This document shows positions 22,708 to 40,797 of a stretch of DNA of 64,000 bases, in pieces. The position numbers and the translations under genes are program-made. The stretch spans positions 1,182,280 through 1,246,279 of the forward strand of contig WLWQ01000001.1 in NCBI GenBank assembly GCA_012103535.1, written 5' to 3'. Position 1 is the first letter of the stretch. Every line of letters begins with the position of its first letter. The notes under the pieces are model-generated. The model did no database searches and was not told the DNA's origin. It was given only the letters and a program-made list of their open reading frames with translations. Origin of the DNA: Pseudomonadales bacterium. Its GTDB lineage: Bacteria > Pseudomonadota > Gammaproteobacteria > Pseudomonadales > Pseudohongiellaceae.

Positions 22708-22735
22708 AGTGACTAAGGCGTTTTCCTAGAAATCA

Positions 22736-24832
22736 CTAGGCGCCAATTTCGGTAAGGCTTTGTTGTGGTGGTAACAAGAGTACTTCTTCGCCTTCACGTA
22801 GCCCCGATGTAATTTCAATAAAGGATTCGGAAAAGGTTCCCGTTTCTATTTCCCGTCGTTCAGGACGACCGCCGTTATCCACATAGACCACACGCTGGTC
22901 GTCCCAGTAAGTTACCGCCTGCACCGGAACGTAAACTACATCCTGTAGCTGGTCGACAAGAATCTCGACTTCGGAACTCATACCTGGGCGCAGCCAGTCA
23001 TGCACGCCGTCTATTTTGATTGTAGTTGGATAAACTTTCAGATCGGGATTCATAAACGCATTGGCTGAATCTGCAACCACTGCAACTTTATTGACAATGC
23101 CGGTTAAACTCACATCTGGAAAAGCGTCAATTGACACTCTTACTCTCTGTCCAACAGCGACGCGCTGCACAGCCGATTCATGAATATTAGTCTTTACTGC
23201 CATTTCCCGCATGTCGGGTATCGTCAGAATAGCCTGCCGTTCTCTAACTGTGGCTCCCTCTTGAATTGCTTCCTGCGAGCTGCTGCGATAACGCATCTGA
23301 TTCTGATCTGACGATCCGTACACAACCAAACCAGGACGTTCGGCAACAATAGTGGCCAAATCAATCTGTTCTTCAACATCTGCGAGCTTGACCCGCTCCA
23401 AATTGTATTTCCTCTCCGCCGAGCTGAATCGTGCTTCTTCTTGCGCCTGCTCGGCTATGTTTTCCTTCAGCTGGCGCTGATAAGCCATAATGGCATTTTC
23501 ATAGTCGGACAACTTTTGTTCAGCATCTTTCGGAAAGCTGTATTGAATATAAAGCTTAAGTGCAGTTTCTTTTTCTGCTTCTTTGTTGCGTGCCTTGCTT
23601 AAGTTGAGTTCTTCCGCTTCCAGTTCAGTTGGCGTAATAAATCCTCTCGCTTCCAGGCGGCGTTGTCCCTCAATACGGTCTTGTGCTAATAAATTTTCTT
23701 CCTGCGAAACCTGTAATTCGTCCTGCAATCGACGCAACTCTTGTTTGGCCTCGCCATCTTCCAGTATTTCCATGTCAGCATACTGCGTGAAATCCAAGTC
23801 ATCGCGAATCGCCATGTAGCTTGCATCCATTAGCAGAGTAACTTCCGTATTTAATGGACTGTCATCAATTGGCTCCAGCCTTAACTCTGGTGCTTCTGCA
23901 ATAACAGGCCCGTCTTCAACAGCTTGCGATGCGCCACCGAATCCGCCTCTTCGACCGCCAGGTCCACCTGGACCGCGACCACCTCCCTGGGAAAATTGCT
24001 GCATACGCTCAAGCATTTCCGCCGGGAGCTCGCCGCCATTGTCTGCCATCATTTGTTCAATGCGTTCTCGCATTGGCGCTGGCATGGAATCTAAATCGGT
24101 CGGATCGAAACTTGGTCGTGGCGCACGTTCCTCTGCAATTTCCTCAATAGATTGGGATCTGGAGGGCAAGCCGTTGGTCATTCTTTCCAGATCTTCAGCT
24201 TCTGCTTTCGCCAGGCGCTCTTCAATTTCTAATTGCGCGATAATGCCAGTTACTAAGTTTCCACCTAGAAACTTTTCGAATTCCAGACGGGCAAAGCGCA
24301 TTTCTTGACGGGCATCATTTAAGGCCGTCATGTTTTCATTTAGTTGTATCTCATATTGTGCTCGGCGTTCGATGTAAGTCGCTTCAGCAGTTTCGACCGC
24401 AATCTCCTGATTGAGTTGCTGGTCGATCAATGCAGCTTTGTCTAGCTCTACCAGGATAAGTCCCTGATCAACATCTTCCGACGTCACCTGATAGCCTTCT
24501 TCGACAATGTTTAGAATCTTAACCCCCTCTCTGCCTTTAATGCGGGAGCGAATCTCTTGTGATTGCAATGCTTCCAGTGAACCACCTTCGAGAACGGTAA
24601 TTTCCAAATCGCCACGACGGGCTTCGAAGGTAATTGAAGTTTCAATATCAGAACTACCACCACCAAAGGTAAATAGCAGAACTAGTGCAAGCAGTCCGCC
24701 ACCGCTCATGGCATATTGAGTTGATTTTTTAGCGGCGAGGAATTTATCGCGAGCGTTAGCAGCAATGTCCTTTAATGGTGCAGGGACTTTGTCCAATATT
24801 TTATCTACAACTTTCTGATCAGTTGGGCTCAT
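22736..24832 (-). CDS. Periplasmic adaptor (HlyD/MacA/DevB family), unusually long at 698 aa
   Basis: One N-terminal TM helix, a lipoyl/beta-barrel segment (ARRGDLEITVLEGGSLEA...; C-terminal VAVGQRVRVSIDAFP..., SFIEITSGLREGEEV) and a very long coiled-coil region with a low-complexity insert. Confidence 0.8.
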   Translation of the reverse strand: MSPTDQKVVDKILDKVPAPLKDIAANARDKFLAAKKSTQYAMSGGGLLALVLLFTFGGGSSDIETSITFEARRGDLEITVLEGGSLEALQSQEIRSRIKGREGVKILNIVEEGYQVTSEDVDQGLILVELDKAALIDQQLNQEIAVETAEATYIERRAQYEIQLNENMTALNDARQEMRFARLEFEKFLGGNLVTGIIAQLEIEERLAKAEAEDLERMTNGLPSRSQSIEEIAEERAPRPSFDPTDLDSMPAPMRERIEQMMADNGGELPAEMLERMQQFSQGGGRGPGGPGGRRGGFGGASQAVEDGPVIAEAPELRLEPIDDSPLNTEVTLLMDASYMAIRDDLDFTQYADMEILEDGEAKQELRRLQDELQVSQEENLLAQDRIEGQRRLEARGFITPTELEAEELNLSKARNKEAEKETALKLYIQYSFPKDAEQKLSDYENAIMAYQRQLKENIAEQAQEEARFSSAERKYNLERVKLADVEEQIDLATIVAERPGLVVYGSSDQNQMRYRSSSQEAIQEGATVRERQAILTIPDMREMAVKTNIHESAVQRVAVGQRVRVSIDAFPDVSLTGIVNKVAVVADSANAFMNPDLKVYPTTIKIDGVHDWLRPGMSSEVEILVDQLQDVVYVPVQAVTYWDDQRVVYVDNGGRPERREIETGTFSESFIEITSGLREGEEVLLLPPQQSLTEIGA

Positions 24833-26516
24833 CTATTCCTTCCTCCCACTGTCCGCTGTCATCGACGTAAAGCAAGCCAACATCACGCCAGAATTCCAGT
24901 TTGGCGATATTGTGCTCGACGATCGAACTGACTAGTTCCGTGCGGGCAGCCGTTAAATCATTCTGTGAATCTACAGTATCCTGGATGTCACCTAAACCTA
25001 ACTCGGCCCGCAATTGGGCCTCTTCGACTCGACGCTCGTTAATTTCCACGCTAGTTACTGATATATCGTAACTTTTCCGCGCTTCATTCATGCGCCGCCA
25101 GGTATCCAGAACCTCCAGTTTTACCCCGTCCAGTGCGAGCAGATAATTGCGCGACGAGGATTCATAATCGATCAAAGCGCGCCGATAGTTATTGCGCTCA
25201 AACTCGGTATCTACCGGCAGGTCAAAATCCAGCCCAGCGGTGTACAAGGCATTTTCAAAATCCAATTCACCAATATTGCCGTTATTGGCATCGGGCACGG
25301 AGGCTACCAGGCTGAAATCGACCGTCGGATTTAATGCGTTGGCTGCGACTTCAATTCTGCGAGCGCTGTCTTGCACTCGATCGAGAGAACTGTACAAATC
25401 CAGGCGTGTCTGAATCGCCATTTCCGTGGATTGCTCGAGACTGATATCCGGACTATCCATTCCAGTTTCAGAAATCAAATCCATCTCATTGTCATCGAGA
25501 ATAATATTATCCTCTGCTGTAAGACCGATAAGTATCTTGAAATTATCCAGACTACGCTTGTAACGAGTAATGGATGATGTCCAGCGTAAGTCGGCTTGCA
25601 GTGCAGATTGTTCCAGGCGGCCTACCTCCAACAAAGTAGTCAAGCCTTCCACTTGGAATGCCTGTTCTCTTTCCAGCGATAAATTGGTTGCGTTAAGACC
25701 AGCAAAATTATTACGGGCGGTTTCACGGTTTAATAATATTGAGTAATAGTCAGAAGCGACACGAACTGCGAATGATTTTCGAAAACGGGTAAAGTCTCTT
25801 AATCGATATAACAAGTCGCGCTCTGCTTGCATCAACGCTTCGGTTTCAATGTCCGTGCCAAAACCGCGAAGCAGCGGTTGGGTGAATGAACCGACTAATG
25901 CGCTGGTTCCAAATTCGTTGATATCGCCAGTAAGAAATCGAGTAAAGTTATTGGTCAGGTTGAGCGCAATCGCGCCACCGCTTTTCAATATGTACTGTGT
26001 GCCTAAACTGGTATTGGAAAAAGTAGACTCATCTATGTCGACATTCTGCATTCCGGTCAGGATTTGCATGTCTTGCACAAACGGATCTCTTCGATCCCAT
26101 TGATAATCACTGCTGCCAGTCGCCGAGAAAATCGGGGTATAGCGATAGCGGTCGAAAGTTAGAGCAAGTGCTTCTAGATAAAGCAGCTCTTTTTGTGTCT
26201 GGTAATCTTTACTCTGCTGGAAGGCAATATCGAGTACATTATTTAAACCTAAAATGCTCGCGCCAATTTCACTGTCGGCTTCGTTATCGAGAAAGTCGAA
26301 TGATTCATTGTTGACTGCAAAATCGTTCAGATTCAGCTCTCGCACTTCATCCACAACCACTTCTGTGGTCATGCCAGGAACCAATTCGGTCTTGTCAGTG
26401 ATGGCCCCGTAGCTTTCCTCATCCGCGCTGCGCTTATAAGAAGACGCAGAGCAGCCTAGCATTACCGAAGTAATACCTAACAAAATCAGAGGCTTACGAA
26501 TGGCTGTCTCAAGCAC
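24819..26516 (-). CDS. TolC-family outer membrane factor lipoprotein
   Basis: 565 aa with a lipobox (VMLGCSAS). The two-repeat TolC architecture is visible (LNNVLDIAFQQSKDYQ... and a second repeat with TVDSQNDLTAARTELV). It overlaps the adaptor gene by 14 nt. Confidence 0.8.
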   Translation of the reverse strand: MLETAIRKPLILLGITSVMLGCSASSYKRSADEESYGAITDKTELVPGMTTEVVVDEVRELNLNDFAVNNESFDFLDNEADSEIGASILGLNNVLDIAFQQSKDYQTQKELLYLEALALTFDRYRYTPIFSATGSSDYQWDRRDPFVQDMQILTGMQNVDIDESTFSNTSLGTQYILKSGGAIALNLTNNFTRFLTGDINEFGTSALVGSFTQPLLRGFGTDIETEALMQAERDLLYRLRDFTRFRKSFAVRVASDYYSILLNRETARNNFAGLNATNLSLEREQAFQVEGLTTLLEVGRLEQSALQADLRWTSSITRYKRSLDNFKILIGLTAEDNIILDDNEMDLISETGMDSPDISLEQSTEMAIQTRLDLYSSLDRVQDSARRIEVAANALNPTVDFSLVASVPDANNGNIGELDFENALYTAGLDFDLPVDTEFERNNYRRALIDYESSSRNYLLALDGVKLEVLDTWRRMNEARKSYDISVTSVEINERRVEEAQLRAELGLGDIQDTVDSQNDLTAARTELVSSIVEHNIAKLEFWRDVGLLYVDDSGQWEEGIDEPN

Positions 26517-26677: not shown

Positions 26678-27634
26678 ATGAAGCATAGAAACCTAATCCT
26701 CGCAGCAACTCTATTGGTCGTCCTTGCCTCGGTTGTGTTTTATCAGTATTCGAAAAATCACCAGCTCGCGGCGCAACTTGATCAGCAGAATGATTTGCGT
26801 GCGCAACTGTTAGAACAAACTGCAGGCAATGCTCAGGAACGACTCGCATTACAAAATCAAATTGAATTACTCGAAGTCAGCTTGGCCTCAGCACTGAACC
26901 AGGTAACAAATCTGTCCGAGGCACTGCAGGATTTTAGGGAAAACAACAATGTGAATATTGAAGAACTTCGCTTGGAAGTAGAAGAAGAAATTGCCAGAGA
27001 AAACCAAGCTAGATTAGCCCACTTGCAATCTCCTGCAATCCTGCAAGCGTTTGCTCGCACCAGTGTACTAGAAGAATACGACGCATACTTAAACACTAAT
27101 ATTGAAAACGAAGACAGAAGAAATTTAATTATAGAATTGCTAATCGAAATCCAAGCGGAACATGATCGAATACTCAATGAAATGAGCGCGCAGGAACTGA
27201 TTGCACATAACGACGATCCAACTGCAAGAAATCAATTCTTCATAGATAACATGTCGTCACACTTAACTAATGAAGAAGCTTTAGCTTTCGAAGAATATGT
27301 TGGCAACTCAAAAGAAAGAATTTTCAGAAAATTCACCACAAGTAATGTCGTTAGTGTTGCGCCTAATCTATCGAATGAAGCGAGAGACGATTTAGTTCAG
27401 AGCCTCTATTTTGAAATGATTGAAAACGCCGAGAATACTGAAAGACCTGATCCCCTTGATCACATCGCATTAACATTCTGGGAAGAAGAAGCAATGAAGC
27501 GAGCTCAGAGCGCATTAAGTCAGCAATTATCCCCAGATGAGTTAAACGAAGCCAACAGATACTTTGAACAGCAACTCAATCGGCTGGAATTGTCTCGAGA
27601 AGTCTGGAGAGCTCAGCGCTCTGCTACTCAATGA
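26678..27634 (+). CDS. Membrane-anchored coiled-coil protein (paralog 1 of 3)
   Basis: 318 aa. An N-terminal TM anchor, a Q/L-rich coiled coil, then a helical region with LTNEE and LSPDE motifs. It shares the segment L..AL.....N..E.L..E...EI with the ORFs at 27719 and 38239. Confidence 0.6.
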   Translation: MKHRNLILAATLLVVLASVVFYQYSKNHQLAAQLDQQNDLRAQLLEQTAGNAQERLALQNQIELLEVSLASALNQVTNLSEALQDFRENNNVNIEELRLEVEEEIARENQARLAHLQSPAILQAFARTSVLEEYDAYLNTNIENEDRRNLIIELLIEIQAEHDRILNEMSAQELIAHNDDPTARNQFFIDNMSSHLTNEEALAFEEYVGNSKERIFRKFTTSNVVSVAPNLSNEARDDLVQSLYFEMIENAENTERPDPLDHIALTFWEEEAMKRAQSALSQQLSPDELNEANRYFEQQLNRLELSREVWRAQRSATQ

Positions 27635-27718: not shown

Positions 27719-28780
27719 ATGGATGAACAATCCATCCCAATGAGGTTAGATATGAAAGCGGCAATCATCGTTACCGTATCTTTAATAATTGGCGGGCTTA
27801 GCTACGCCACAATTTCATTGCAGTCGGCAAATTCCCGTTTAGAAAATCAACTGCAAACTGCCATGCGCTATCAACAACAGCTGCAAGAGCAAACAGAACT
27901 GTATACCCGACAAAGATTGAATTTCGAGCAAAGGCAAGCAGAGTTCGAAGACGAGCTGCTTGAAGCATCAACCCTACTAAGCAGTCTAAATTCTGCGCTT
28001 AGTGAAGCCGAACAGCGTGCCAATCCAGAATACGAAGCACTGTTAGAGCAAGCCCGGCGCGAAATAGCTGCCGCCGAGGGTCAACATTCTCGTCGCGGTG
28101 GACCGGGAGGCGGCATGGCCTTGTTCTCCAATCCTGACGCCACACGAAAAATGGCGGAGGATCGGATAGCCGGCGGTTTTGTCGACTACCTGGAAGGATT
28201 GGGGATCAGCTCTTCTCAAACGGATAATATTTATGAAGCGCTGGTGGACTTCAATGACGCACGCTATCAAATGCTGGGTCAACTCATGGAAGGAAACCTT
28301 ACAAGCGATCAGGCAGCGGCCATGTTTGGACCAGATGCCATGGTTGAAAATCTTGCCGATTTACTAACGCCTGAACAAGCCGCAGAACTTGGCGCTTATA
28401 ACATTGGCGTGAATGAGGGTGCCGCTCGTCAGGTCTATTCAAGCATGATCGCCAGCGGTGGCAGCGCCATATCCGGAGAAAGTCAGGACCTGGTTATGAA
28501 CACTCTCATGGATGAGCTGTATTCAGTACAAAACAACTACGGCGCGCTGGTGGCAGATGATGGCAGTATGACCAGTGCTTATAACGATAAACTCGCCGCT
28601 TTCGAGCGTGCCCGGGATCGATTAGAGGGCGACCTGAATAGCGACCAGCTAGCCCAATTTGATGGATTTGTACAAAGCCAGGCGGGGGCAGTGGATCTGG
28701 TGCTGGAAGCGAGTGAAGATGGCGCCGGCAATGTGCAGGTGAGAAATATGAAGGTAGGCGCGGAAAACCTGCCAAATTAG
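27719..28780 (+). CDS. Membrane-anchored coiled-coil protein (paralog 2 of 3) with two LTxxQ motifs
   Basis: 353 aa. TM anchor, coiled coil, SEAEQRANPEYEALLEQARREI, a Gly-rich RRGGPGGGM segment, then LTSDQ (28298-28312) and LTPEQ (28364-28378). Confidence 0.6.
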   Translation: MDEQSIPMRLDMKAAIIVTVSLIIGGLSYATISLQSANSRLENQLQTAMRYQQQLQEQTELYTRQRLNFEQRQAEFEDELLEASTLLSSLNSALSEAEQRANPEYEALLEQARREIAAAEGQHSRRGGPGGGMALFSNPDATRKMAEDRIAGGFVDYLEGLGISSSQTDNIYEALVDFNDARYQMLGQLMEGNLTSDQAAAMFGPDAMVENLADLLTPEQAAELGAYNIGVNEGAARQVYSSMIASGGSAISGESQDLVMNTLMDELYSVQNNYGALVADDGSMTSAYNDKLAAFERARDRLEGDLNSDQLAQFDGFVQSQAGAVDLVLEASEDGAGNVQVRNMKVGAENLPN

Positions 28781-28872: not shown

Positions 28873-31848
28873 ATGACAATCCGCAATTTTTCAGGGCAAT
28901 GGCAGCGCTACTTACTAGCACTGGTGATGCTGGTAGGGCTTGCAGCCTGTAGTGATGCGCCGGAGGTTTCAAACACAGAAACCGCGCAAGCAGAACCTGA
29001 AGCCAACCTGGGCTATACCCGCATCAATGAGCCAAACGAAGACGATCCCTTGGATGCTCATATCTATGAGCTGGACAATGGGCTGCGGGTTTACTTAACC
29101 GAAAACCATGAAGAACCACGATTCTATGCGGAGATCGCAGTTCGCGCCGGCAGCAAACACGACCCAGCCGATGGCACCGGTCTGGCTCACTACCTTGAGC
29201 ATCTCTTGTTTAAAGGTAATCAGAACCTAGGCACTCTGGATTACGCCGCGGAAAAACCCTATCTCGATGAAATCGTAGACCTCTACGAAGAGCATTTCTC
29301 AGAAATCGATGAAGGTCGGCGGGCCGAAATTTACAGTGAGATTAATCGTGCTGCCCAACTGGCCGCCGAGTATGCAGTGCCCAATGAAATCGACAAACTT
29401 TATAACAGCATGGGTGGCAGTGGTCTCAATGCTCACACCTGGTATGAAGAAACCGTTTATAAAGTAGGCCTTCCCGCTAATCGTTTACAGCAATGGGCGG
29501 AAATTGAATCCGACCGTTTTGTCAATCCTGTTTTTAGATTGTTTCATACCGAACTGGAAACGGTTTACGAAGAAAAGAACCGCACCCTGGACAATGGCGA
29601 TCGCATTATCGGCACCGCCATCGATGAGTTGCTCTATAAAGTACATCCCTATGGTCAACAACCCACAATTGGTACTGTCGATCATTTAAAGAATCCTTCA
29701 CTGGTTTACATTCAAAACTATTTCGACACTTACTATGTGCCTAACAACATGGGCATCTTCATGAGTGGTGATATCGATATAGAAGAAACCATTGCCCTGA
29801 TTAGCGACAAGTTTGGCCACTGGGAATCTAAACCTGTTCCCGCAGTTGGTCCCTGGGATGAGCCAGCACTGCAGGGTGCTGAGCGCAGAACAGTACAATA
29901 CCCAGGCGAGGAACAAGTATCGATTGCATTCCGTACCGCAGAGAACGGCAGTGAAGATAAGGAAGCGTTAATTCTGGTTGATATGATTCTCGATAACCGC
30001 ACTGCCGGCCTCATCAATCTGAATCTAAACCAGCAGCAATTAGTTTCTAATGCCGGATCCTCACCACTGTTTTTAAACGACCACGGTTCGCAAAATCTCT
30101 ACGGCGTACCGAAACAGGATCAATCGCTGGAAGAAGTTGAACAACTGCTTCTGGATCAGATCGATAACATCAAGTCAGGCAACTTCGAAGAGTGGATCAT
30201 TGCCGCCATTATTAACGACTTTAAAAAGAACGAGAAAGCCAGCCTGGAATTTAATACAGCCCGAGTCGGCATGATGCGTTCGTCATTTATTGAAGGCTCA
30301 GACTGGAACTACCACATCGCCGAGATCGATCGCATGGAACAATTAGACAAGGATGATGTAGTTGATGTTGCCAACAGATACTTTGGCGACAACTACGTTT
30401 CTGTCTATCGCATCGATGATCAACATGTCGTTCCACCGGTTGAGAAACCACAAATCGATCCGGTTAGTATCGATCCTACTCGTCAATCCACTTTCGCCTC
30501 CAACATACTGGCGATTGAATACGATGAAATTGAACCTTCATTCGTCGAAGCAGACAGTGATTACCGTGTTATCGAGTTCGCCGATGGTGTGGAGCTGTAT
30601 TACGCCCCGAATCCTCTCAATGATCTATTTTCTTTTTCTATTAATGTCGAAGTAGGTACCGAAGAGAACGAAAAACTTAGTTTGTCTGCTGCGCTGATGG
30701 ATGTTGCTGGCACTCAAAGCATGAGCAACGAAGAACTGCAGAAAGAATGGTATCGCATGGGCTCAGAATTTCGTTTTGGCTCCGGCGAAAACTCTTCAGC
30801 ATTTTCGGTCTCCGGCCTGGATGAACAATTTGAAGATTCTTTGGCACTCATGATGGAACTGGTAAAGACTCCAGCGACTGATGAACAAACGCTGGAGCAG
30901 TTAAAAGGTATTTTGCTGAAGTCGCGGGAAGATCGTAAGAGTTCACCGCCAGCGATTGCCCAGGCACTCTATCTTTTCAATCGATACGGTGAAGAGTCTC
31001 CATTGTTAGAAGCATTGACTACCGAAGAGATTGTCGATACCGAACTCGACGAGCTCATGTCACTGCCTTCAGACCTTCTTAACTATAAGCAAACCATTGC
31101 CTACACCGGCTCCTTGCCACTGGAAGACCTGGTAGAAATTTTGCGCCGACACCATGACGTCGAAGGCGAGTTGCAGGACACCCCTGATTACAGATTCAGA
31201 ACTGCACGCCAGGTTGTAGACACTGAGTTAATGGTGGTGGATCAACAAACCGCTCAGGCTCAAGTCCGTATCGAGTTCGCTGACGGCGAATACAATCCCG
31301 ACGATGCAGTAATGTCTTCTATTTACACCAATTACTTTGGTAGCGGCATGTCTAGCGTGGTGTTTCAGGAATTGAGAGAGGCTCGAGCCCTCGCCTATTC
31401 CGCCCAGGCGCGTTACTCTCAGGGCAGTCGCTTGAATGCTGAGAACCTGATGCTCGGCGCCATCGGCACGCAAACGGATAAAACAGTTGATGCACTGGAA
31501 GCCTTTATCGACTTGATCGATAACATGCCTTCTTCTTCCGAACGCTTCGAAGAATCAGTCAATTCATTGTTGAACCGATATCGCACCTCGAAACTGAATT
31601 TCAGAGAAGTAATTGGTGCGGTGCGGAGCTGGGAACGTCTCGGTTTCGAAACTGATCCGCGGCGGGCGCGCTATCAGGAGTTGCAAACAGCCAGTCTCGA
31701 TGATTTGCTTGAGTTCCAGGAAGAACATGTCCAAGCGCGACCAAAACTCATTTCCATTGTTGGCGATCTCTCCATAATCGACACCGAGGAACTTGAACAG
31801 TTTGGTACGGTCGAAGAAGTTCAAGTCGAGCAACTATTCGTCGACTAG
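28873..31848 (+). CDS. M16 (pitrilysin/insulinase) family zinc peptidase lipoprotein, 991 aa, doubled M16 module
   Basis: It has a lipobox (LVGLAACS) and the inverted zinc motif HYLEH at 29188-29202 followed by LLFKG. Its size fits four M16 half-domains, and the second half has no HxxEH. Confidence 0.85.
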   Translation: MTIRNFSGQWQRYLLALVMLVGLAACSDAPEVSNTETAQAEPEANLGYTRINEPNEDDPLDAHIYELDNGLRVYLTENHEEPRFYAEIAVRAGSKHDPADGTGLAHYLEHLLFKGNQNLGTLDYAAEKPYLDEIVDLYEEHFSEIDEGRRAEIYSEINRAAQLAAEYAVPNEIDKLYNSMGGSGLNAHTWYEETVYKVGLPANRLQQWAEIESDRFVNPVFRLFHTELETVYEEKNRTLDNGDRIIGTAIDELLYKVHPYGQQPTIGTVDHLKNPSLVYIQNYFDTYYVPNNMGIFMSGDIDIEETIALISDKFGHWESKPVPAVGPWDEPALQGAERRTVQYPGEEQVSIAFRTAENGSEDKEALILVDMILDNRTAGLINLNLNQQQLVSNAGSSPLFLNDHGSQNLYGVPKQDQSLEEVEQLLLDQIDNIKSGNFEEWIIAAIINDFKKNEKASLEFNTARVGMMRSSFIEGSDWNYHIAEIDRMEQLDKDDVVDVANRYFGDNYVSVYRIDDQHVVPPVEKPQIDPVSIDPTRQSTFASNILAIEYDEIEPSFVEADSDYRVIEFADGVELYYAPNPLNDLFSFSINVEVGTEENEKLSLSAALMDVAGTQSMSNEELQKEWYRMGSEFRFGSGENSSAFSVSGLDEQFEDSLALMMELVKTPATDEQTLEQLKGILLKSREDRKSSPPAIAQALYLFNRYGEESPLLEALTTEEIVDTELDELMSLPSDLLNYKQTIAYTGSLPLEDLVEILRRHHDVEGELQDTPDYRFRTARQVVDTELMVVDQQTAQAQVRIEFADGEYNPDDAVMSSIYTNYFGSGMSSVVFQELREARALAYSAQARYSQGSRLNAENLMLGAIGTQTDKTVDALEAFIDLIDNMPSSSERFEESVNSLLNRYRTSKLNFREVIGAVRSWERLGFETDPRRARYQELQTASLDDLLEFQEEHVQARPKLISIVGDLSIIDTEELEQFGTVEEVQVEQLFVD

Positions 31849-31854
31849 CCTTGG

Positions 31855-31882
31855 CAGTGGTGTTGCAGCAGCAACACCACTG
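31855..31882 (+). other. Perfect 12-bp stem-loop between the M16 peptidase gene and the ABC operon
   Basis: CAGTGGTGTTGC-agca-GCAACACCACTG, with no U-tract after it. Confidence 0.6.
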
Positions 31883-31932
31883 TAGAAGAATATAAAATAT
31901 TCCAATTCGAGCTTCTTTAGAATAGAAACCAA

Positions 31933-32868
31933 ATGAGCACCACTAGCAGTGCCCAAGCATTATCCGTTGACTCGCTTAACAAGAGTTACGGATCATTCGA
32001 AGTTTTAAAAAATCTGGATCTTATTCTCAACCGGGGTTCAATACTCGGCCTGGTCGGGCTCAATGGTTCTGGTAAGACCACGACTATCGAATGCATTCTT
32101 GGTTTACAAAACTTTAATAGCGGCGCAGTTTCTCTGTTCGACTATTCACCGTCCACCCTACACCAGGCCAAGGGAAAGATTGTTGGCATCTTCGATACAC
32201 CCAGCCTCCATCCCAACTTAACAGTCAGGCAAAGCCTGCAGCATGCAGCGCTGTTAACGGATAACCAGGCACGCTCTCCAGAACGGGTCGAAGAGCTGTT
32301 AAGTATCGAAAAATTTTCAAATTTCAAGATTCGTCATCTGTCATTAGGCAACAAACGCCGTGCTTCTTTAGCCCATGCACTTTTAAGTAATCCTGACTTG
32401 ATTGTTTTAGACGAACCGTTTAATGGCCTCGACGCTGGCGGCGTAGATGACGTGCTCGCTCTTATCCAACGCTTAAATCAAGAAGAAGGAACTACCTTTC
32501 TACTGTCCAGTCATCAACTCCCCTATTTAGAGAATATATGTAGCCACATTGCCATCTTGCATCAGGGAGCGATTGCAGTAAGCGGCACTATCGATAGCCT
32601 GTTAGAGGATTCCAAACATACCGTTTTGTTGCGCACCGAAGAGAATGTTGCAGCAATAAACTATTTGCAAGGGCGCGAAGATGTTGCCGTTACTAATCCT
32701 GATGCCGATGGCTACATCCAACTGGAAATCACCGAGTTGAATTCTGCCGATCTGAATCGCCAACTCATTGAAAATAATATTGCCGTCAGTGAACTTATAT
32801 TGCAAAAAGCCTCACTGAGCAATTTGTTTCGCACTATTACCAGCAATCCCGGTGAGCAGCAGTCATGA
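31933..32868 (+). CDS. ABC transporter ATP-binding protein (ABC-2 exporter type)
   Basis: Walker A GLNGSGKTT, signature LSLGNKRR and Walker B LIVLDEPFNGLD, plus a C-terminal accessory domain. Confidence 0.85.
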   Translation: MSTTSSAQALSVDSLNKSYGSFEVLKNLDLILNRGSILGLVGLNGSGKTTTIECILGLQNFNSGAVSLFDYSPSTLHQAKGKIVGIFDTPSLHPNLTVRQSLQHAALLTDNQARSPERVEELLSIEKFSNFKIRHLSLGNKRRASLAHALLSNPDLIVLDEPFNGLDAGGVDDVLALIQRLNQEEGTTFLLSSHQLPYLENICSHIAILHQGAIAVSGTIDSLLEDSKHTVLLRTEENVAAINYLQGREDVAVTNPDADGYIQLEITELNSADLNRQLIENNIAVSELILQKASLSNLFRTITSNPGEQQS

Positions 32869-33722
32869 ACGGATTTCTCACTGCTTTAAAATCAGAATTG
32901 TTTATCGCTCTGCGTACCTTCGCCAGCAAGCTTATTCTTTTAGCACCTGCCCTAATCATTGTGCTGCAGAATTTGCTGTTATGGATTACCGAAACCGGTC
33001 AGGCAGCAAGAGATAATCTCCTTGGCAATCCCAGTTTCGATGAAGTGGTGAGTTCCAATGCCTATGGCTATTTTGTCGATAGCATGAGCACTGGTCTAAC
33101 CATGCTCGGGCTATTAATAGTTGCGCAGCCTGCCTACAGTTTTAGTTTCGAGAGAGACACTGGCCTGGTACGCCATTTATTGATTCGACGCGTCAGCCGA
33201 CCCGCACTGATGCTGGCAAAACTAGTGCATTTGCATCTATTAGCATTACTGTCTTTTGTTATCTTGCTACTAACGGCTTATTTTTTCAGTGGTTTGTTTT
33301 GGGAATTTGGACCGATTGTCGAAGACGGATTCGAATTAATCAGCGAAGAAGAGATTCTGTTTGAAATCAACACCGGTCTTCGACTTGCACTGGCACCATT
33401 TCCAGCCGCCATCGCATTTGGCTTACTCATTTCGGTTTGGGCCCAGTCCGCAACCCAGGCAGTGACTACTGCCTTAGGTATCACCCTGGCTATCGATATA
33501 TTCAAATCCATGCTCGGTGACTACGCTAATTTTCTTTATGCCCGCTTCCAGCCTTCACTTATCGACGACTCTTATTTACAGGATGTCAGCCGCATAGTCC
33601 GTGGCTATTCAGATGTTTTAGTGGATGAAAATGTGTTACAGATGAATCTATGGGTGCCGATTCCAGCGTTAATTGTATTTATTGCTGTAACACTTGCAGT
33701 TATTCAACGTAAAAAGATATGA
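32865..33722 (+). CDS. ABC-2-type permease-like membrane protein
   Basis: 285 aa with about 6 TM helices and an extracytoplasmic loop after TM1. Its start overlaps the ATPase stop (ATGA). Confidence 0.65.
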   Translation: MNGFLTALKSELFIALRTFASKLILLAPALIIVLQNLLLWITETGQAARDNLLGNPSFDEVVSSNAYGYFVDSMSTGLTMLGLLIVAQPAYSFSFERDTGLVRHLLIRRVSRPALMLAKLVHLHLLALLSFVILLLTAYFFSGLFWEFGPIVEDGFELISEEEILFEINTGLRLALAPFPAAIAFGLLISVWAQSATQAVTTALGITLAIDIFKSMLGDYANFLYARFQPSLIDDSYLQDVSRIVRGYSDVLVDENVLQMNLWVPIPALIVFIAVTLAVIQRKKI

Positions 33723-33743
33723 GGGAATACACGGAGCACGCAG

Positions 33744-34703
33744 TTGAAAACTCTTCCATTTCTTAAGCTATCAATACTGCCAATCGTGTTGGCTCAATTA
33801 GCCGCTTGCGTAAGCTATGAACCAGCGATTTTAACACCGGCAATTACTCTTTCAGTCGAAGACGTTAGCCTGATCGAAGACTCAAACCAGAGCCTAAGAA
33901 TCGATTTCGGCCTCGAACTCGGACTTAATGAGAGTGATTCTTTATTCAATGTAGAAGTGCTGCCTGGAGTAAGAGTGCGGAACGTGGCAGCAAATGGCGC
34001 GGCGGATTCAGCGGGAATTCAGATTGGCGACATTATCCTTGCCATAGATGGAACCGATACCAACCATCCGGACACAATAGAAGCTATTCAGCAAACATCT
34101 GATAACAGCAATTTCGAATTTACCGTACAACGAAACACAACTGTATTCGCGGCAACTGTGGTAGGCAGATCTATCAGTAGCAGCAACGGACCCGAAGAGC
34201 TCTATCGCATCGATCCCATTGCAACCCGAGCCGGTTACAGAACTGAATTGTTGTCACTAGACAATAGCGGCACTGCTGCGGCCAGAGTAATTGAACTATT
34301 CCCAGATAGCCCCTTGCCTGCCGCGGGCATAGGCATCGATGATGTCATCCTGCGCCTCAATGGGATCACGCTAAACTCGGCGCAAGACCTGGTTACCCGG
34401 ATCATTCGAGAGCATGAACTCGGCGAAGAAGTGGCCTTTACGGTTTATAATGGCGACGAGGTAGCGGAAACTACGGTACAGCTATGGGATCCAGGCAGGA
34501 GAATTAGTCGAATCAATGTAGGGCCAGTGCTGCAATACGAGTCTTCTTTAAGCCCTTCTAGTGAATCGTTTTCATTATTGGATTTCTGGTTGTTTGCGGT
34601 GTACAACTATTCTCGAATCGACGGTGAACGATCGCACAGCATTTTAGGTCTATTCAACATAAGCAGTGATTTCGGCGAGCTTACGGAACTGGAAAATCAG
34701 TAA
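33744..34703 (+). CDS. Lipoprotein with two PDZ domains
   Basis: It has a lipobox (LAQLAACVS). PDZ-like units surround GADSAGIQIGDIILAIDG and LPAAGIGIDDVILRLNGITLNS. Confidence 0.7.
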   Translation: MKTLPFLKLSILPIVLAQLAACVSYEPAILTPAITLSVEDVSLIEDSNQSLRIDFGLELGLNESDSLFNVEVLPGVRVRNVAANGAADSAGIQIGDIILAIDGTDTNHPDTIEAIQQTSDNSNFEFTVQRNTTVFAATVVGRSISSSNGPEELYRIDPIATRAGYRTELLSLDNSGTAAARVIELFPDSPLPAAGIGIDDVILRLNGITLNSAQDLVTRIIREHELGEEVAFTVYNGDEVAETTVQLWDPGRRISRINVGPVLQYESSLSPSSESFSLLDFWLFAVYNYSRIDGERSHSILGLFNISSDFGELTELENQ

Positions 34704-34723
34704 AGAGATTAAAAAATAATTCG

Positions 34724-36286
34724 ATGGGAAGAGCTTCAACAACATTGGGTCGATTAAGCGTAATGTTTCTAGGTGGATTATTCGCCTCTGCGAGTTTTGC
34801 CCAGAGTAATTACGTCGCCTTTGAGTTAGACCGCGAAAATAATTGGGAGCGCCTGGTAACCGAAGATGTAAACGGTGATGGTGCGAAAGACATTATATTT
34901 GCCCACTATGACGCTGCCATCGGCAGAGAGCTGCACATCCATCATCAACAAAGCGATGGCAATTTTTCTGCAAACCCGCAACGGGTCGAGATTAAAACGG
35001 AAATCATCGCCGTTGGCTTCGCCGATTTGCGCAGCGACCCAGGAAAAGAACTGGTGTTACTCGCGAACAATGGTGTGTTCAGTTTATCGACCGCCGTCGA
35101 AGGCTATGCCGGAAACATAAAGCTCTTGTTTGAATGGGATTTAGTCGCCGCCATTCCTGATCAGGAAGACGTAGAGTTTCTCACCAACATTGAAGACATT
35201 AACGGCGATAGCGAAATAGATTTTCTGCTGCCCGGCGAAGAACGATTCGGGTTTTTTGTTGGCAAAGGCGACGAACATTTCGAATTGACGGCATCGATTC
35301 GCACCATCAATGAAAACCTGACCGCAGCGCAACGAAACAATCAGGAATCTGATTTAAATGCCAGCATCGGTATCAATCCCGATGAAGGCGTAGTGGTAGA
35401 GTTGCGGGCAGAAACACCAACGCCTTTTTCCGGTTTTATCGAATCCTGGGAGCCCAAATCCACGGATTCCCGTGCACTATTAAGAACTGCGAACTGGATG
35501 CCAACCGCACTACTCGCCGAGCTCAACGGCGACGGCTTAAAAGACCTTATCTACCTCAACGTGGGAGACGACAGTCTCGGACAATTGAATATTCATTATC
35601 AGAATGAAAGCAACGGATTTGCGGAGAAAGCCGATTGGCAGGGCTCCACTGATACCCGCGGCGACATTCGTTTAGTCGATATGAATAATGACGGTTTGCA
35701 GGACATTCTGCGGCTAACCGGCGAAGGCAACGATTGGGATGCCCGTTTCTACTTAAATACCGAAGGCAGTTTCGATTTTCAACAACCGAATCAGATTATG
35801 CGTTTTTCTGGCTACGATGTAAGACTTGAGTTTGTAGCGCTTGCCGATGAAGAAAAGCCGATCCTTAATGTGAGCTATTACACCATTCCTGTCGTCGACG
35901 CGATTCGCAATGCCAGTATCAATCGTACGCAACTGCTTTACAGTGCCGATGCGGCAGAAGCAGGTCAACTGTTTGCCCGTCGACCCAACTCACGCCTGGA
36001 AGAAAGTTTCTCAGCGGCCAATGTTCGCGGTTTATCTGAACAGATGTCGCTGCAGTATGACGTCGATGGCGACGGTACCAACGATGCACTTTATGTCACC
36101 GAAAACGGTACCTTGGCAGCAAAGAAGATTAACGAGCAATTACAAATTGCTGAGTCGCCCTTCTGGGAATACGTCTCTCCACGCACAGTATTTGAGTTTG
36201 AAGTACTTGCCCTTAACGACGATGCTATTCCCGACCTGGTACTGCGGCACGGCACCACCACCTCTCTACTGGTGGCCACTCCATGA
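34724..36286 (+). CDS. Secreted FG-GAP/VCBS-repeat (beta-propeller) protein
   Basis: A signal peptide, then repeated Ca-binding-type loops: DVNGDGAKDIIF, DINGDSEIDFLLPG, ELNGDGLKDLIY, DMNNDGLQDIL, DVDGDGTNDALY and NDDAIPDLVL. Confidence 0.75.
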   Translation: MGRASTTLGRLSVMFLGGLFASASFAQSNYVAFELDRENNWERLVTEDVNGDGAKDIIFAHYDAAIGRELHIHHQQSDGNFSANPQRVEIKTEIIAVGFADLRSDPGKELVLLANNGVFSLSTAVEGYAGNIKLLFEWDLVAAIPDQEDVEFLTNIEDINGDSEIDFLLPGEERFGFFVGKGDEHFELTASIRTINENLTAAQRNNQESDLNASIGINPDEGVVVELRAETPTPFSGFIESWEPKSTDSRALLRTANWMPTALLAELNGDGLKDLIYLNVGDDSLGQLNIHYQNESNGFAEKADWQGSTDTRGDIRLVDMNNDGLQDILRLTGEGNDWDARFYLNTEGSFDFQQPNQIMRFSGYDVRLEFVALADEEKPILNVSYYTIPVVDAIRNASINRTQLLYSADAAEAGQLFARRPNSRLEESFSAANVRGLSEQMSLQYDVDGDGTNDALYVTENGTLAAKKINEQLQIAESPFWEYVSPRTVFEFEVLALNDDAIPDLVLRHGTTTSLLVATP

Positions 36287-37938
36287 ATGCCATTAGCAAA
36301 GTCTTGCTTCTTCTATATGGGTTGTTGAGTTTTAACCTGGCCCTGGGCGCCACACTGGAATACACCCAACTACCCTTTTCACTGCCAGCAGAGAGTGAGC
36401 AACTGGTAGTAGCAGATCTTAATGGCGATTCACTGAATGAATTGATAACGGTGATCGATGATTCACTGAGAATATATTTTCAACGGGAGAACGGTTTCGA
36501 TTTCGATGCTGGCTATAAGGAAATTGATTTTTCTGACCAGGCGGTCGGCTGGGATCTAAGCACCAATTACAGCGAAGACAATCGCGCCTCCATTATTGGA
36601 TTGGTTAATGGCACCGATGCTTATGTTTGGCATGCGGAACAGGAAACAATTCTCGAACCGGAAATAATAAAATCAAACCTTCCCGGCTTTCTAAGCAAAG
36701 GGGTGAATCGACTCTTCTTTTCCCGCGACATCAATGGCGACGGTCGTGAAGACTTGATTGTTCCCGGTGCGGGCAATCTCCATGCCTTTATCGCGGAAGC
36801 AGGTAACAGCTATCAACCTGACCTCACCATCAAATCTGAAAATCGGATGCGCACAACCCTGGCGCCCAATTCGCTGGAACGACGCACCGGCCAAGCAGTG
36901 CGCATTCCCTTCATGGAATTACGGGATGTAAACAACGATGGTTTTGATGATTTGATTTCCCGCTCCGACGAACGTCTCGATGTATTTATTGCCGACGAAC
37001 TCGGTGACGCTTATTTTAATGCTGATCCTTCTTATTCCTTAGACATTACTGAAATTGAAGAACGCCTCGGTGACTTCGATGTCGACAATCTCGATTTTTC
37101 TAACTTAACCGGAGTACTGGCCCTAACTCATGAAGAAGTCTTGGACGATGTCGACGGCGATGGCATCGAAGACTTATTACTCCGGGAAGGAGGCAAGGTC
37201 TCACTCTTCGGTGGTACCGACAGCGGCATGAATCTCGAACAGCCTCGTCAAGTATTGCGCTCCGGCGGCAATGTCTTAAGTACATTCCTCTACGACGAAG
37301 ATGAAGACGGATTGAAAGATCTGTGGTTGTGGCGGGTAGAGCCAATTTCTGTGGGCGACATTTTTGTCTGGTTAGCCCTATCCGGTAGCGTGGCAATCGA
37401 AGCCTTCGTCTACCCCAACGATGGCGAACGGTTTGCACGGAGACCCGCGCGCAAACTTACCGTCAATCTGCGCTTCCCTTCTGTGCTGCGGCTGGCCACT
37501 ACCTTTCAAGATCTTGCTACAGAAGCGAGAGAGAGTCTGGAAGACGAACTGATACCAACGAGTGTTGGCAATCTGGATGGCGCCATCGATCAGGAAGACT
37601 TACTGTTGCTGATAAACAATCAAGTCGAACTATTCCTAAACAGTATAGAACCGGAAGACGATGACGAAGCATTTCTTGGCGCGCTGGATTACAGTCGCGA
37701 GCGCGATGATTACGAAATCAATATTCGGGAGATCATTGACAACATTTCTATCGGCGGCAATCCCCATCTTGAATTGGCTAGTAACCGCAACCCCGATCTC
37801 GCGATCGACCTGGGAATAAGCGCAGAAAATGGCGATATTATCCCGGTGAGACTGAATGCAGATTCCCTCGACGATGTATTTGTATTTACCCACCACGACA
37901 GTAGTCAGGTTCAGGGAATACTGTTACTCTCAAAGTAA
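36283..37938 (+). CDS. Secreted FG-GAP/VCBS-repeat (beta-propeller) protein, second copy
   Basis: A signal peptide, then DLNGDSLNELI, DINGDGREDLIVPG, DVNNDGFDDLI, DVDGDGIEDLLL and DEDEDGLKDLWLW. Its start overlaps the previous stop (ATGA). Confidence 0.75.
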   Translation: MNAISKVLLLLYGLLSFNLALGATLEYTQLPFSLPAESEQLVVADLNGDSLNELITVIDDSLRIYFQRENGFDFDAGYKEIDFSDQAVGWDLSTNYSEDNRASIIGLVNGTDAYVWHAEQETILEPEIIKSNLPGFLSKGVNRLFFSRDINGDGREDLIVPGAGNLHAFIAEAGNSYQPDLTIKSENRMRTTLAPNSLERRTGQAVRIPFMELRDVNNDGFDDLISRSDERLDVFIADELGDAYFNADPSYSLDITEIEERLGDFDVDNLDFSNLTGVLALTHEEVLDDVDGDGIEDLLLREGGKVSLFGGTDSGMNLEQPRQVLRSGGNVLSTFLYDEDEDGLKDLWLWRVEPISVGDIFVWLALSGSVAIEAFVYPNDGERFARRPARKLTVNLRFPSVLRLATTFQDLATEARESLEDELIPTSVGNLDGAIDQEDLLLLINNQVELFLNSIEPEDDDEAFLGALDYSRERDDYEINIREIIDNISIGGNPHLELASNRNPDLAIDLGISAENGDIIPVRLNADSLDDVFVFTHHDSSQVQGILLLSK

Positions 37939-37962
37939 CATTCACTTTCCAGGGCGCTAATT

Positions 37963-38226
37963 ATGAGCGCTTTTACCATGCAAAAGGCAGTTTGGACATC
38001 TTTCGGGATTGCCCTGGTGCTGGTTAATGTCATCGCGGAAGTGGGTGAGTACTACACCGGCATTCATGTTCACATGTTCTTACGCATCGCGTTAATAGTT
38101 GGCGTCACCATGGGTACCTCCGTATTGGCCGGTGCAACAATTCTGGTTTCGAAAATGGACGAAGAAGTACCCCTATCCGGTCATGTTAAAGACACACTTA
38201 GTGCGGATCGCAAGAAAGCAGACTAA
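37963..38226 (+). CDS. Small two-TM membrane protein
   Basis: 87 aa with two hydrophobic helices. It is tightly packed between operon genes, with gaps of 24 and 12 nt. Confidence 0.5.
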   Translation: MSAFTMQKAVWTSFGIALVLVNVIAEVGEYYTGIHVHMFLRIALIVGVTMGTSVLAGATILVSKMDEEVPLSGHVKDTLSADRKKAD

Positions 38227-38238
38227 GCATTCAGATTC

Positions 38239-39066
38239 ATGAAAACTCCATTACTTGTTTCAATCCTTATTGCTGTGACAACGAGCGCAGCTGCACTGTA
38301 TTTTTATTTGCAAAGTGCAGCCGACTCGACCCGTTTGGCGGATTACGAATCCCATGTACAACAGTTATTAAGTCAGGCAGAAGATAACAGTCGCCAGCGC
38401 ATCCAACAGGAAAGAGAAATTAGCGAGTTGCGAAGTGAACTGAACACATTGGGCAGCCAGTTAACCGCCGTTTCTAATCAATTGGGAATTGCTGAAGCTC
38501 AGACTGATCCAAACTACGAAAGAGTAGAAGCAGAAATTCGGCGGCAAGTTATCGTCGAATACGAAGAGGCTAATCCTGACCGTCTCACTAATCAGCGAGT
38601 TGATTTAATTCAGCAGATTGCGCAATTAGACCCAATCGAATTCAGTGAGATCATGGGCATCCAGGGACAATTTGGTCCATTTCTACAAGCCTTAGTCGTC
38701 AACGACGAGCGCATGGAAATTATCGTTGGCGCACTTTCCAACGTCGTAACCAGTCAGAATCTCGCACGCCAGGAAATCATGCAGGCCGCGCAAAATCAGG
38801 AAATAGGTCGAAGAGAAATGCGCACACAGATGCGCGAAGTAATGAATCCGGAAACTATGTTCGAAGTGCTGTCCTACGATCTAAGCGATGACGAACTTAA
38901 TTTACTTACTGAAGTACAGGAACAACAGCGCACTCAATCTGCAGTCAGTACTTTCTCATTGCGCAGTGGTAGTACGCGAGCCCAAGCGACCGGTAGCAAT
39001 CGTCAAGGTGGTTTTGGTGTCGCTCCTGCACAACCCATCACAGCTCCAGAAAATCCTCGCAACTAA
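38239..39066 (+). CDS. Membrane-anchored coiled-coil protein (paralog 3 of 3)
   Basis: 275 aa. TM anchor, coiled coil, AEAQTDPNYERVEAEIRRQV (compare ANPEYEALLEQARREI in paralog 2), an LSDDEL motif and a Gly-rich tail RQGGFG. Confidence 0.6.
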   Translation: MKTPLLVSILIAVTTSAAALYFYLQSAADSTRLADYESHVQQLLSQAEDNSRQRIQQEREISELRSELNTLGSQLTAVSNQLGIAEAQTDPNYERVEAEIRRQVIVEYEEANPDRLTNQRVDLIQQIAQLDPIEFSEIMGIQGQFGPFLQALVVNDERMEIIVGALSNVVTSQNLARQEIMQAAQNQEIGRREMRTQMREVMNPETMFEVLSYDLSDDELNLLTEVQEQQRTQSAVSTFSLRSGSTRAQATGSNRQGGFGVAPAQPITAPENPRN

Positions 39067-40308: not shown

Positions 40309-40797
40309 ATGAACGATTCAACAAATGAAAACCATGCCCATGAACCGGGTCACGATCTTCATGTCCCACATGAAGATCTCATAATTCATTTCTTAAACCA
40401 AATAATCAGAATGGCTGTAAAGATCTTAGCTGTCTTAATGGTATTAGTAATCGTGTGGGGCATTGGTGATGTCATCTTCGTGCTCTACCAGAGACTAATG
40501 GAGCCACCTGTCTTGTTGCTCAGTATTGGCGATATCCTTGCCACTTTTGGCGCCTTTCTCGCGGTGCTGATCGCCATTGAGATTTTTATGAATATCAGCA
40601 TGTATCTCACCAAGAATGTTATTCCGGTGCGGCTTGTGATCGCGACAGCGCTAATGGCCATTGCGCGAAAAGTTATTATTTTCGACTTCGAGCAATTATC
40701 TCCTCCTTATATATACGGCACTGCTGCCGTAATTTTAGCGCTCGGAATCACCTATTGGTTAATAGCCAGGAAACCAGGACGACAAGAAAATGTTTAG
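40309..40797 (+). CDS. PsiE-family-like four-TM membrane protein
   Basis: 162 aa. LAVLIAIEIFMNISMYL...PVRLVIATALMAIARKVIIFD resembles the PsiE core (EFIALIVKYF...ITAIVRLIIVD). Confidence 0.5.
   Translation: MNDSTNENHAHEPGHDLHVPHEDLIIHFLNQIIRMAVKILAVLMVLVIVWGIGDVIFVLYQRLMEPPVLLLSIGDILATFGAFLAVLIAIEIFMNISMYLTKNVIPVRLVIATALMAIARKVIIFDFEQLSPPYIYGTAAVILALGITYWLIARKPGRQENV

Follow-up and report, generated by a model that had tools for sequence, protein, structure and literature searches.

A conserved gene cassette that joins an ABC-2-type engine to twin FG-GAP propellers and a tandem-PDZ lipoprotein

In a 64-kb stretch of a genome assigned to the Pseudohongiellaceae (GenBank assembly GCA_012103535.1, contig WLWQ01000001.1; the whole stretch is called the window below), seven closely packed plus-strand genes at positions 31933-39066 encode an ATP-binding cassette (ABC) ATPase, an ABC-2-like permease, a lipoprotein with two PDZ domains, two FG-GAP/VCBS propeller proteins (FG1 and FG2), a small membrane peptide and a coiled-coil protein. 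The initial annotation of this locus proposed that all seven belong to one periplasm-spanning machine matching no characterised pathway. The question is therefore whether these genes form a system at all, which of them constitute it, and what it could do for the cell. Our analysis leaves us highly confident that the ABC-2, propeller and PDZ proteins make up a real multiprotein module. The assignment of a peptide-handling function to it is tentative, with the balance of probability lying against it. Our best explanation of the locus combines these elements into a conserved, hitherto undescribed, ATP-driven envelope machine which is built on an ABC-2 engine and handles peptides or small proteins, and in this full form we give it somewhat less than an even chance. 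That such a machine spans the periplasm is plausible.

Gene order and the conserved core

All seven open reading frames are present where the initial annotation had placed them, with successive spacings of -4, 21, 20, -4, 24 and 12 nt, and the ATGA overlaps at 32865 and 36283 can both be read directly in the sequence. They encode, in this order, the ATPase (31933-32868, 311 aa), the permease (32865-33722, 285 aa, six transmembrane segments), the tandem-PDZ lipoprotein (33744-34703, 319 aa, TTG start), the secreted propellers FG1 (34724-36286, 520 aa) and FG2 (36283-37938, 551 aa), a mini-protein with two transmembrane segments (37963-38226, 87 aa) and a membrane-anchored coiled-coil protein (38239-39066, 275 aa). 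In the public gene calls FG1 begins 21 nt further downstream, at 34745 and not at 34724, which shortens the product to 513 aa and widens the gap to the PDZ gene to 41 nt. No terminator-like site was found between the genes on the plus strand; the sole plus-strand match in the stretch lies inside FG2, and the number of such sites is not above that in shuffled sequences. A search against Rfam found neither riboswitches nor RNA families of any other kind across the window. A tightly coupled operon is supported by these data. The domain calls made for the first five products were borne out by Pfam, and the two last ones have the predicted hydrophobic segments, two in the 87-aa product and a single N-terminal one in the 275-aa product. 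The suggestion that all products are located in the envelope fails because the ATPase is cytoplasmic.

The window has the same sequence as a scaffold from a marine metagenome and, judged by its relatives, falls within the Pseudohongiellaceae. A genome scan with the FG1 alignment returned Pseudohongiellaceae only: FG1 relatives with 52-83% identity are present in 80 species-level genomes of this family, which together with three further loci make a set of 83. The block is syntenic throughout this set and starts with a gene for an M16 peptidase directly upstream of the ABC gene (70 loci, the remainder being cut by contig ends), followed by the ABC (78), permease (77), PDZ (82), FG1 (83), FG2 (81) and 87-aa (73) genes, the missing members falling at contig ends. 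Within the Pseudohongiellaceae such synteny is weak evidence, because the downstream TRAP-TAXI genes are equally syntenic (70 of the 83 loci). Two public metagenome-assembled genomes (MAGs) labelled 'Kiritimatiellia bacterium' and 'Glaciecola sp.' (L076) carry cassette proteins 57-59% identical to those of the window; these labels are probably binning errors and do not denote the true hosts.

More distant relatives were found by an exhaustive search of representatives and by profile search. The five-gene cassette, its order unchanged and its start and stop codons again overlapping, occurs in two Cellvibrionales-like genomes ('Proteobacteria bacterium 005FR1' and Aurantivibrio plasticivorans) and in two Planctomycetota MAGs, and the flanks of these four cassettes (L084-L087) are wholly different, being devoid of the M16, 87-aa, coiled-coil and TRAP genes. 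The identity of the distant orthologues to the proteins of the window is 34-59% for the ATPase, 24-64% for the permease, 28-58% for the PDZ protein, 23-63% for FG1 and 31-61% for FG2; all five are mutual orthologues and co-diverge. The same gene order in different phyla within unrelated flanks is more than chance would produce. The adjacency is thus conserved well outside the source genome, and the outcome that the initial annotation had named as fatal to its proposal, a neighbourhood confined to that genome, did not materialise. What is conserved is a unit of five genes (ABC, permease, PDZ, FG1 and FG2) and not of seven; judged by this distribution, the core consists of these five, and the M16 peptidase and the mini-protein are stable accessories of one clade. 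Two deeply diverged gammaproteobacterial metagenome contigs (L088 and L089), again with other flanks, have the M16 gene, the five core genes and a homologue of the 87-aa gene, and among 80 metagenome loci the form with M16 was present in all wherever the contig extends far enough. That this metagenome scan, seeded with a Planctomycete permease, gave exclusively gammaproteobacterial cassettes of the M16 type is a consequence of the patterns chosen, so the known diversity of the Planctomycete-type and PDZ-less cassettes rests on a handful of contigs.

The FG1 orthogroup comprises about 92 full-length clusters at 50% identity, and of the 92 family representatives 61 are closest to the FG1 proteins of Planctomycetota and 27 to those of Gammaproteobacteria, which places the centre of diversity of the family outside the Gammaproteobacteria. 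FG2 orthologues stand directly after FG1 in every cassette. A plasmid collection searched by tblastn with FG2 gave no match. A solitary FG-GAP gene near an HtrA gene (L091) was considered and set aside as not being a cassette.

The initial annotation asked whether the twin FG-GAP genes always accompany both the ABC-2 pair and the PDZ lipoprotein. The association with the ABC-2 pair stands; that with the PDZ protein does not, since PDZ-less cassettes exist. In a Planctomycetes MAG (L090) the cassette consists of an M28 peptidase gene, the ABC gene, which it abuts, the permease gene and two FG-GAP genes. Two independent metagenome contigs (L092 and JGI 3300047160), likewise PDZ-less, encode an ABC protein, an 803-aa permease::FG-GAP fusion and a second FG-GAP protein. 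According to Pfam the fused protein has ABC2_membrane_4 at residues 10-214 and FG-GAP repeats in its C-terminal part, and the two halves are linked by a seventh hydrophobic segment that resembles a signal peptide and ends with AQA. With the former signal peptide serving as a seventh transmembrane segment, the fused propeller would face the periplasm. The fusion argues for a physical contact of the first propeller with the permease and is the strongest evidence for it that we have. After both fusion cassettes come two genes, one for a small hydrophobic protein of 127-139 aa and one for a Ser/Thr protein kinase of about 1000 aa (L092:9456-12841; JGI 3300047160), a hint that the system may be connected with signalling in this lineage. 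Downstream of the PDZ-less cassette of the Planctomycetes MAG there is a gene for a 473-aa protein (L090:11131-12552) weakly similar to T2SSK, the type II secretion pseudopilin K (E = 2e-4).

Components of the cassette and a possible mechanism

The ATPase (ABC_tran, 1.1e-25 in Pfam) is composed of a nucleotide-binding domain and a C-terminal domain of about 80 aa, a layout of the DrrA/NosF/ABCA (type V exporter) kind, and the Walker A motif, the LSxGxxxR signature, the Walker B DEP and the H-loop are all kept in an alignment of eight orthologues. Its best full-length match among the solved structures is NosF (7o0y_B, 8.8e-33), with residues 9-307 aligned to residues 3-299 of NosF. The permease is recognised less readily. 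Four ABC-2 membrane families of Pfam, including ABC2_membrane_4, _2 and _3, match it weakly (7.8e-5 to 6e-3) and the score remains under the cut-off (23.2 vs 27 bits), while the cut-off of ABC2_membrane_4 is passed by the L090 permease (47 bits) and by the fused L092 protein (29 bits), and that of ABC2_membrane_2 by the L090 permease (40 bits); orthologues also match ABC2_membrane_2 and DUF2705. Six hydrophobic segments are common to the permease orthologues, and two motifs are conserved across them, VEDG[FY]E (at about aa 146-151) and RGYSD (at about aa 236-240), both of which are predicted from the topology to sit in periplasmic loops. No credible permease match was obtained among the solved structures of the PDB with either the single sequence or a seven-sequence profile. 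A motif-complete ATPase adjoining an ABC-2 membrane protein with about six transmembrane segments is what defines a generic ABC-2/type V ABC exporter, and the pair belongs there. In PADLOC only the ATPase was matched, by generic ABC/AAA models, and none of the other six proteins was, so the operon does not appear there as an anti-phage defence system.

The PDZ lipoprotein matches PDZ_2 in two stretches (1.1e-20) and PDZ_6 (1.6e-14) of Pfam and has the lipobox LAAC; a lipobox is also present in all seven orthologues examined. In the AlphaFold2 model of the monomer both PDZ domains are confidently predicted (about aa 50-250), and the best Foldseek matches of the model are the PDZ tandems of DegQ, DegP and RseP. 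The carboxylate-binding loop of the first domain, LPGV, is invariant in 47 sequences. A long stretch rich in invariant residues follows (247-315, a C-terminal tail of about 70 aa), and a GELxE motif is found near the C-terminus in most of eight orthologues. At the same time, residues 254-319 have a predicted local distance difference test score (pLDDT) below 50 in the monomer; conservation of a segment that is yet so poorly predicted alone is a pattern typical of folding on a partner. The NCBIfam model degP_htrA_DO matches the PDZ region, but the matches are confined to the PDZ regions (67-139 and 179-247) with none to Trypsin or Trypsin_2, and the lipoprotein, lacking a catalytic domain, does not count among the HtrA proteases. 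As to its ligands, the C-termini of FG1 and FG2 were rejected since they are not positionally conserved outside the gammaproteobacterial clade. The C-terminus of the M16 peptidase, which has the form [LIV]F[VI]x-COOH and is fixed in 51 metagenome loci, is a candidate ligand.

Both FG1 and FG2 have the features of FG-GAP/integrin-alpha-type beta-propellers. FG-GAP_3 of Pfam (cut-off 26.9 bits) matches FG1 with 1.1e-17 (64.8 bits) and FG2 with 2.4e-12 (47.7 bits), and FG2 is additionally matched by FG-GAP (4.6e-10). FG1 contains six loops of the DxDGDGxxD type and one degenerate loop, together with a variable disordered insert at aa 209-257, and its AlphaFold2 monomer is all-beta with a mean pLDDT of 83.4 and a predicted TM-score (pTM) of 0.80; invariant Asp/Gly columns recur at intervals in the FG-GAP proteins. 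FG2 is a distant paralogue of FG1 (22% identity over 390 aa, E = 1e-7). Sequence searches of the PDB gave nothing meaningful for FG1 and no match for FG2.

The M16 zinc peptidase gene (28873-31848, plus strand, 991 aa) lies upstream of the genes first annotated. Its product matches Peptidase_M16 (8.9e-18, 65 bits) and Peptidase_M16_C (2.2e-34, 119 bits) above the Pfam cut-offs, has an intact HxxEH zinc motif (HYLEH) and a lipoprotein signal (LAAC), and is a fused M16B enzyme of the PqqL-like clam-shell type; among PDB entries it matches the active subunit of a Sphingomonas M16B peptidase (2.4e-26) and PqqL, and none of the NCBIfam equivalogs PqqF, pitrilysin and YfmF/YfmH reaches its cut-off. 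In the 51 metagenome loci mentioned above the gene precedes the ABC gene, with a single exception at a distance between -23 and +190 nt, and in seven metagenome loci its stop overlaps the longest ABC reading frame by 4-23 nt. M16 is an accessory partner that is constant in the gammaproteobacterial clade and is not part of the core. The 87-aa protein, with transmembrane segments at 9-27 and 38-56, has homologues of 66-67 aa after FG2 in the two deeply diverged contigs (46% and 30% identity in L088 and L089, respectively) and in 41 metagenome loci, and we infer that it is a recurrent clade-specific membrane subunit of the M16-containing gammaproteobacterial cassettes. Neither this protein nor the 275-aa coiled-coil protein matched any Pfam family. 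The coiled-coil gene was detected in 29 of the 83 loci (29-64% identity) and is absent from the distant loci L084-L092; it is a poorly conserved, lineage-specific neighbour and probably not part of the machine proper. The same build of a transmembrane segment, a coiled coil and a helical region with LTxxQ-like motifs is seen in three products encoded on both sides of the operon, at 26678-27634, 27719-28780 and 38239-39066, of which the first two are distant paralogues (E = 4e-4) and the third is only weakly similar to the second (E = 0.03); no Pfam family covers any of the three. The idea that they are CpxP/Spy-like LTxxQ adaptors was dropped, as Pfam gave no support for it even at E = 10. Finally, both Cellvibrionales-like genomes have a gene of the Peptidase_S11 family (D-Ala-D-Ala carboxypeptidase) shortly after the cassette (L085:13578-14531, 260 nt downstream of it, and L084:15705-16631), which may reflect shared ancestry or a link to the cell wall.

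From these components the following scheme can be drawn. A permease homodimer with two ATPase subunits would form the engine. A pseudo-dimer of FG1 and FG2 would cap the permease on the periplasmic side, docking on the VEDGFE and RGYSD loops, and the PDZ lipoprotein would attach through the conserved tail that is disordered when modelled alone. ATP hydrolysis might then be used to extract or expel peptides or small proteins from the inner membrane or the periplasm, or to present them, with the protease-type PDZ tandem capturing them. Degradation would follow where a peptidase gene is attached, by the chamber-forming M16 lipoprotein in the window or by the M28 aminopeptidase in the Planctomycete. 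The overall role would be to extract, capture and degrade, in the service of peptide clearance, detoxification or envelope quality control. The choice of peptides as substrates is prompted by the PDZ protein, with its tandem closest to those of DegQ, DegP and RseP, its invariant LPGV loop and its tail of the partner-folding type, and by the recurring neighbours of the cassette, which are peptidases: M16 in two deeply diverged gammaproteobacterial clades, M28 in L090 and S11 in L085.

Several observations weigh against this scheme. Proteolysis is not intrinsic to the core, because L084-L087 have no fused or overlapping peptidase gene, and the PDZ gene is dispensable in the simpler type of cassette. 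The association with M16 counts as one evolutionary event, owing to a single ancestral acquisition. In the window, moreover, M16 and the ABC gene are separated by a spacer of 84 nt that holds a strong hairpin, a perfect 13-bp stem-loop directly after the M16 stop codon (31854-31883, plus strand, no U-tract; -27 kcal/mol, z = -3.97, none of 200 shuffles folding as well), which may act within the operon in processing, stabilisation or attenuation. FG-GAP/VCBS propellers are generic binders, some bacterial ones, such as RbmC and Bap1 of Vibrio, bind polysaccharide, and Foldseek matched the FG1 model to generic propellers only (DDB1, integrin alphaIIb, the KICSTOR propeller subunit and UmbA4, with TM-scores of 0.2-0.47). 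Lastly, both the subunit ratio and the seating of the propellers on the loops of the permease are our own inference.

A bolder version of the peptide-handling scheme would see here an unrecognised class of cytoplasm-energised periplasmic proteolysis machine, in which the propeller pair forms a gated antechamber, the PDZ domains select substrate termini and the M16 or M28 chamber peptidase is coupled to the assembly, so that cytoplasmic ATP would power the removal and destruction of peptides lodged in the membrane or present in the periplasm. We regard it as rather unlikely. If true, it would be a Gram-negative envelope counterpart of the gated proteolysis of the Tricorn/HtrA type that gets round the lack of periplasmic ATP.

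Relation to known systems and competing explanations

Curated families and solved structures contain nothing that covers the cassette, and full-text searches turned up no paper on it. In public databases its PDZ and propeller proteins go by no other names than 'VCBS repeat-containing', 'PDZ domain-containing' or 'hypothetical'. The profile searches with Pfam, NCBIfam and PADLOC, by which the genes might have been assigned to a characterised pathway, returned generic domains only. The initial annotation had described the partner set as uncharacterised, and this is upheld by the fact that every NCBIfam equivalog or subfamily match is far below its cut-off, with scores two- to nine-fold too low for the GldA, LanFEG and DrrA models. 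It had also likened the operon to NosDFY and to the gliding-type GldAFG modules; this resemblance is sound for the engine, where the ATPase finds its best full-length match of known structure in NosF, and does not extend to membership in either system.

NosDFY, the complex that powers copper delivery to N2O reductase, shares several features with the cassette. The ATPases agree in length and in their two domains, the permease is of the ABC-2 type with six transmembrane segments, and there is a dedicated all-beta periplasmic partner and a lipoprotein accessory. The partners themselves differ, however, two FG-GAP propellers standing in the place of the NosD beta-helix and a PDZ tandem in that of the copper chaperone NosL. 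The permease has only two weak subfamily matches in NCBIfam, neither of them to NosY, and its profile does not match the solved NosY. The NosF and NosY equivalogs fail as well, so that the NosF likeness amounts to a general subfamily similarity, and no nosZ, nosR or other nos family was found among the neighbouring genes scanned for families (20616-47052 of the window, which is also the neighbourhood referred to below). GldA/GldF/GldG of Bacteroidota likewise combine an ABC-2 pair with a large dedicated periplasmic partner, and GldA aligns with the full length of the ATPase. In contrast to this, the GldA equivalog TIGR03522 scores 117.2 vs 402.6 bits, which excludes membership, NCBIfam shows no match to GldF or GldG, the hosts are Gammaproteobacteria and Planctomycetota, and propellers and a PDZ protein are found in place of GldG. 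The DrrAB model TIGR01188 (drrA) reaches 135.4 vs 312.45 bits although it aligns over the full length. The two PDZ domains are structurally closest to the PDZ pairs of HtrA proteases (DegP/DegQ) and RseP, whereas the protein which carries them differs from both in having no trypsin-like or M50 domain, in its lipid anchor and unique tail, and in being encoded in an ABC-2 operon.

Two further comparisons bear on the function. There is a module associated with pyrroloquinoline quinone (PQQ) dehydrogenases which we take to consist of the ATPase TIGR03864, the permease TIGR03861 (PedC) and the periplasmic beta-propeller protein TIGR03866. Our ATPase matches the first model at 5.1e-35 and our permease the second at 0.0025, but the scores (121 vs 302 and 17.5 vs 241 bits) preclude membership, FG1 and FG2 did not match the propeller model in the NCBIfam scan, the PQQ module has a single propeller and no PDZ protein, and no PQQ dehydrogenase adjoins the cassette in the window. 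The sbo-alb loci for ribosomally synthesised and post-translationally modified peptides contain the ABC-2 pair AlbC/AlbD with the M16 peptidases AlbE/AlbF. Both types of locus combine an ABC-2-like pump with one or more M16 peptidases and a small membrane protein, but the neighbourhood yielded neither a precursor peptide nor a radical-SAM enzyme, half of the distant cassettes lack M16, and nothing in sbo-alb corresponds to the propellers or the PDZ protein.

The strongest competitor of a peptide-handling machine is the export or handing over of a non-peptide envelope component (a lipid, glycolipid, polysaccharide or metal), the propellers being Ca-type periplasmic acceptors or carriers comparable to NosD or GldG, the PDZ protein a scaffold only and the peptidases a separate matter. 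Such a role has a minor though real share of the probability. The ATPase belongs to the DrrA/NosF/ABCA group, the characterised members of which move lipids, drugs, polysaccharides or copper; the core can do without PDZ protein and peptidase, four cassettes have no adjacent peptidase, and glycan binding is within the capacity of FG-GAP/VCBS propellers. Nevertheless, no glycosyltransferase, lipid-synthesis or metalloenzyme genes recur beside the cassette in the contexts examined. The neighbours that do recur are peptidases, and the module that has been added to the core is a PDZ tandem of the protease type.

It is also conceivable, if on the improbable side, that nothing is transported and that the cassette encodes a pure mechanotransducer, in which the ATPase cycle switches a periplasmic propeller-PDZ assembly and thereby gates a partner enzyme such as M16 or M28. 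FtsEX activates the EnvC-bound amidases and NosDFY drives copper loading by mechanotransduction of this kind. The motifs conserved in the predicted periplasmic loops of the permease, the permease-propeller fusion, the closeness of the ATPase to NosF and the position of M16 or M28 tight against the ABC gene would all suit this role. On the other hand, transducers of the FtsEX and MacB type have a different fold (type VII), and the core also exists where no partner enzyme is encoded nearby. This explanation overlaps with the peptide-handling machine, and sequence alone does not separate it from transport.

A narrower form of the peptide-handling proposal is a dedicated immunity to a membrane-active peptide similar to LanFEG/LanI, with the pump expelling the peptide and the lipoprotein sequestering it. 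The pump has a lipoprotein partner, amphipathic peptides are substrates of M16 enzymes, and the ATPase matches the lantibiotic protection model TIGR03740 (1.2e-38) and the permease, weakly, MutE/EpiE (0.005). These matches are, however, far below the cut-offs (133 vs 309.75 and 16.2 vs 145.2 bits, respectively), so that LanFEG membership does not hold; the neighbourhood contains no bacteriocin biosynthesis genes and no homologues of LanI, LanR or LanK, and Lan immunity has nothing that corresponds to the twin propellers. The cassette is, besides, chromosomal, single and vertically stable across the whole family, which would be unusual for an immunity locus. We consider an immunity role very improbable. 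That the adjacency is fortuitous, unrelated envelope genes having been packed together in one lineage as the equally syntenic TRAP-TAXI genes of the Pseudohongiellaceae might suggest, is refuted by the recurrence of the five genes in the same order and with overlaps in Planctomycetota and Cellvibrionales-like genomes with different flanks, and by the permease-propeller fusion.

Neighbouring genes and biological significance

On the minus strand, divergent from the operon, lies a MacB-type tripartite efflux operon (20616-26516) encoding a MacB_PCD/FtsX permease, an ABC ATPase, a 698-aa HlyD-like adaptor and a 565-aa outer-membrane efflux protein of the OEP family. Downstream, a gene for the phosphate-starvation-inducible protein PsiE (40309-40797) is placed between the genes for a TAXI solute-binding protein and a DctM-type TRAP permease; among the 83 related loci it was detected in L001 and L002 alone, two contigs whose sequence is that of the window.

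The use of ABC-2 (type V) engines such as NosDFY, LptB2FG and GldAFG to send the energy of cytoplasmic ATP into a compartment that is free of ATP is an emerging theme in the biology of the bacterial envelope. The partner set found here, twin integrin-like propellers and a protease-type PDZ lipoprotein, has been described for none of these engines. The cultured carriers, Aurantivibrio and the Pseudohongiella isolates, make the cassette accessible to genetics. If the link to peptidases holds, it would represent a way for Gram-negative bacteria to power the extraction and degradation of peptides in their envelope. Even with another substrate, about 90 clusters of hypothetical proteins now called 'VCBS repeat-containing' gain a defined genomic, and probably physical, context.

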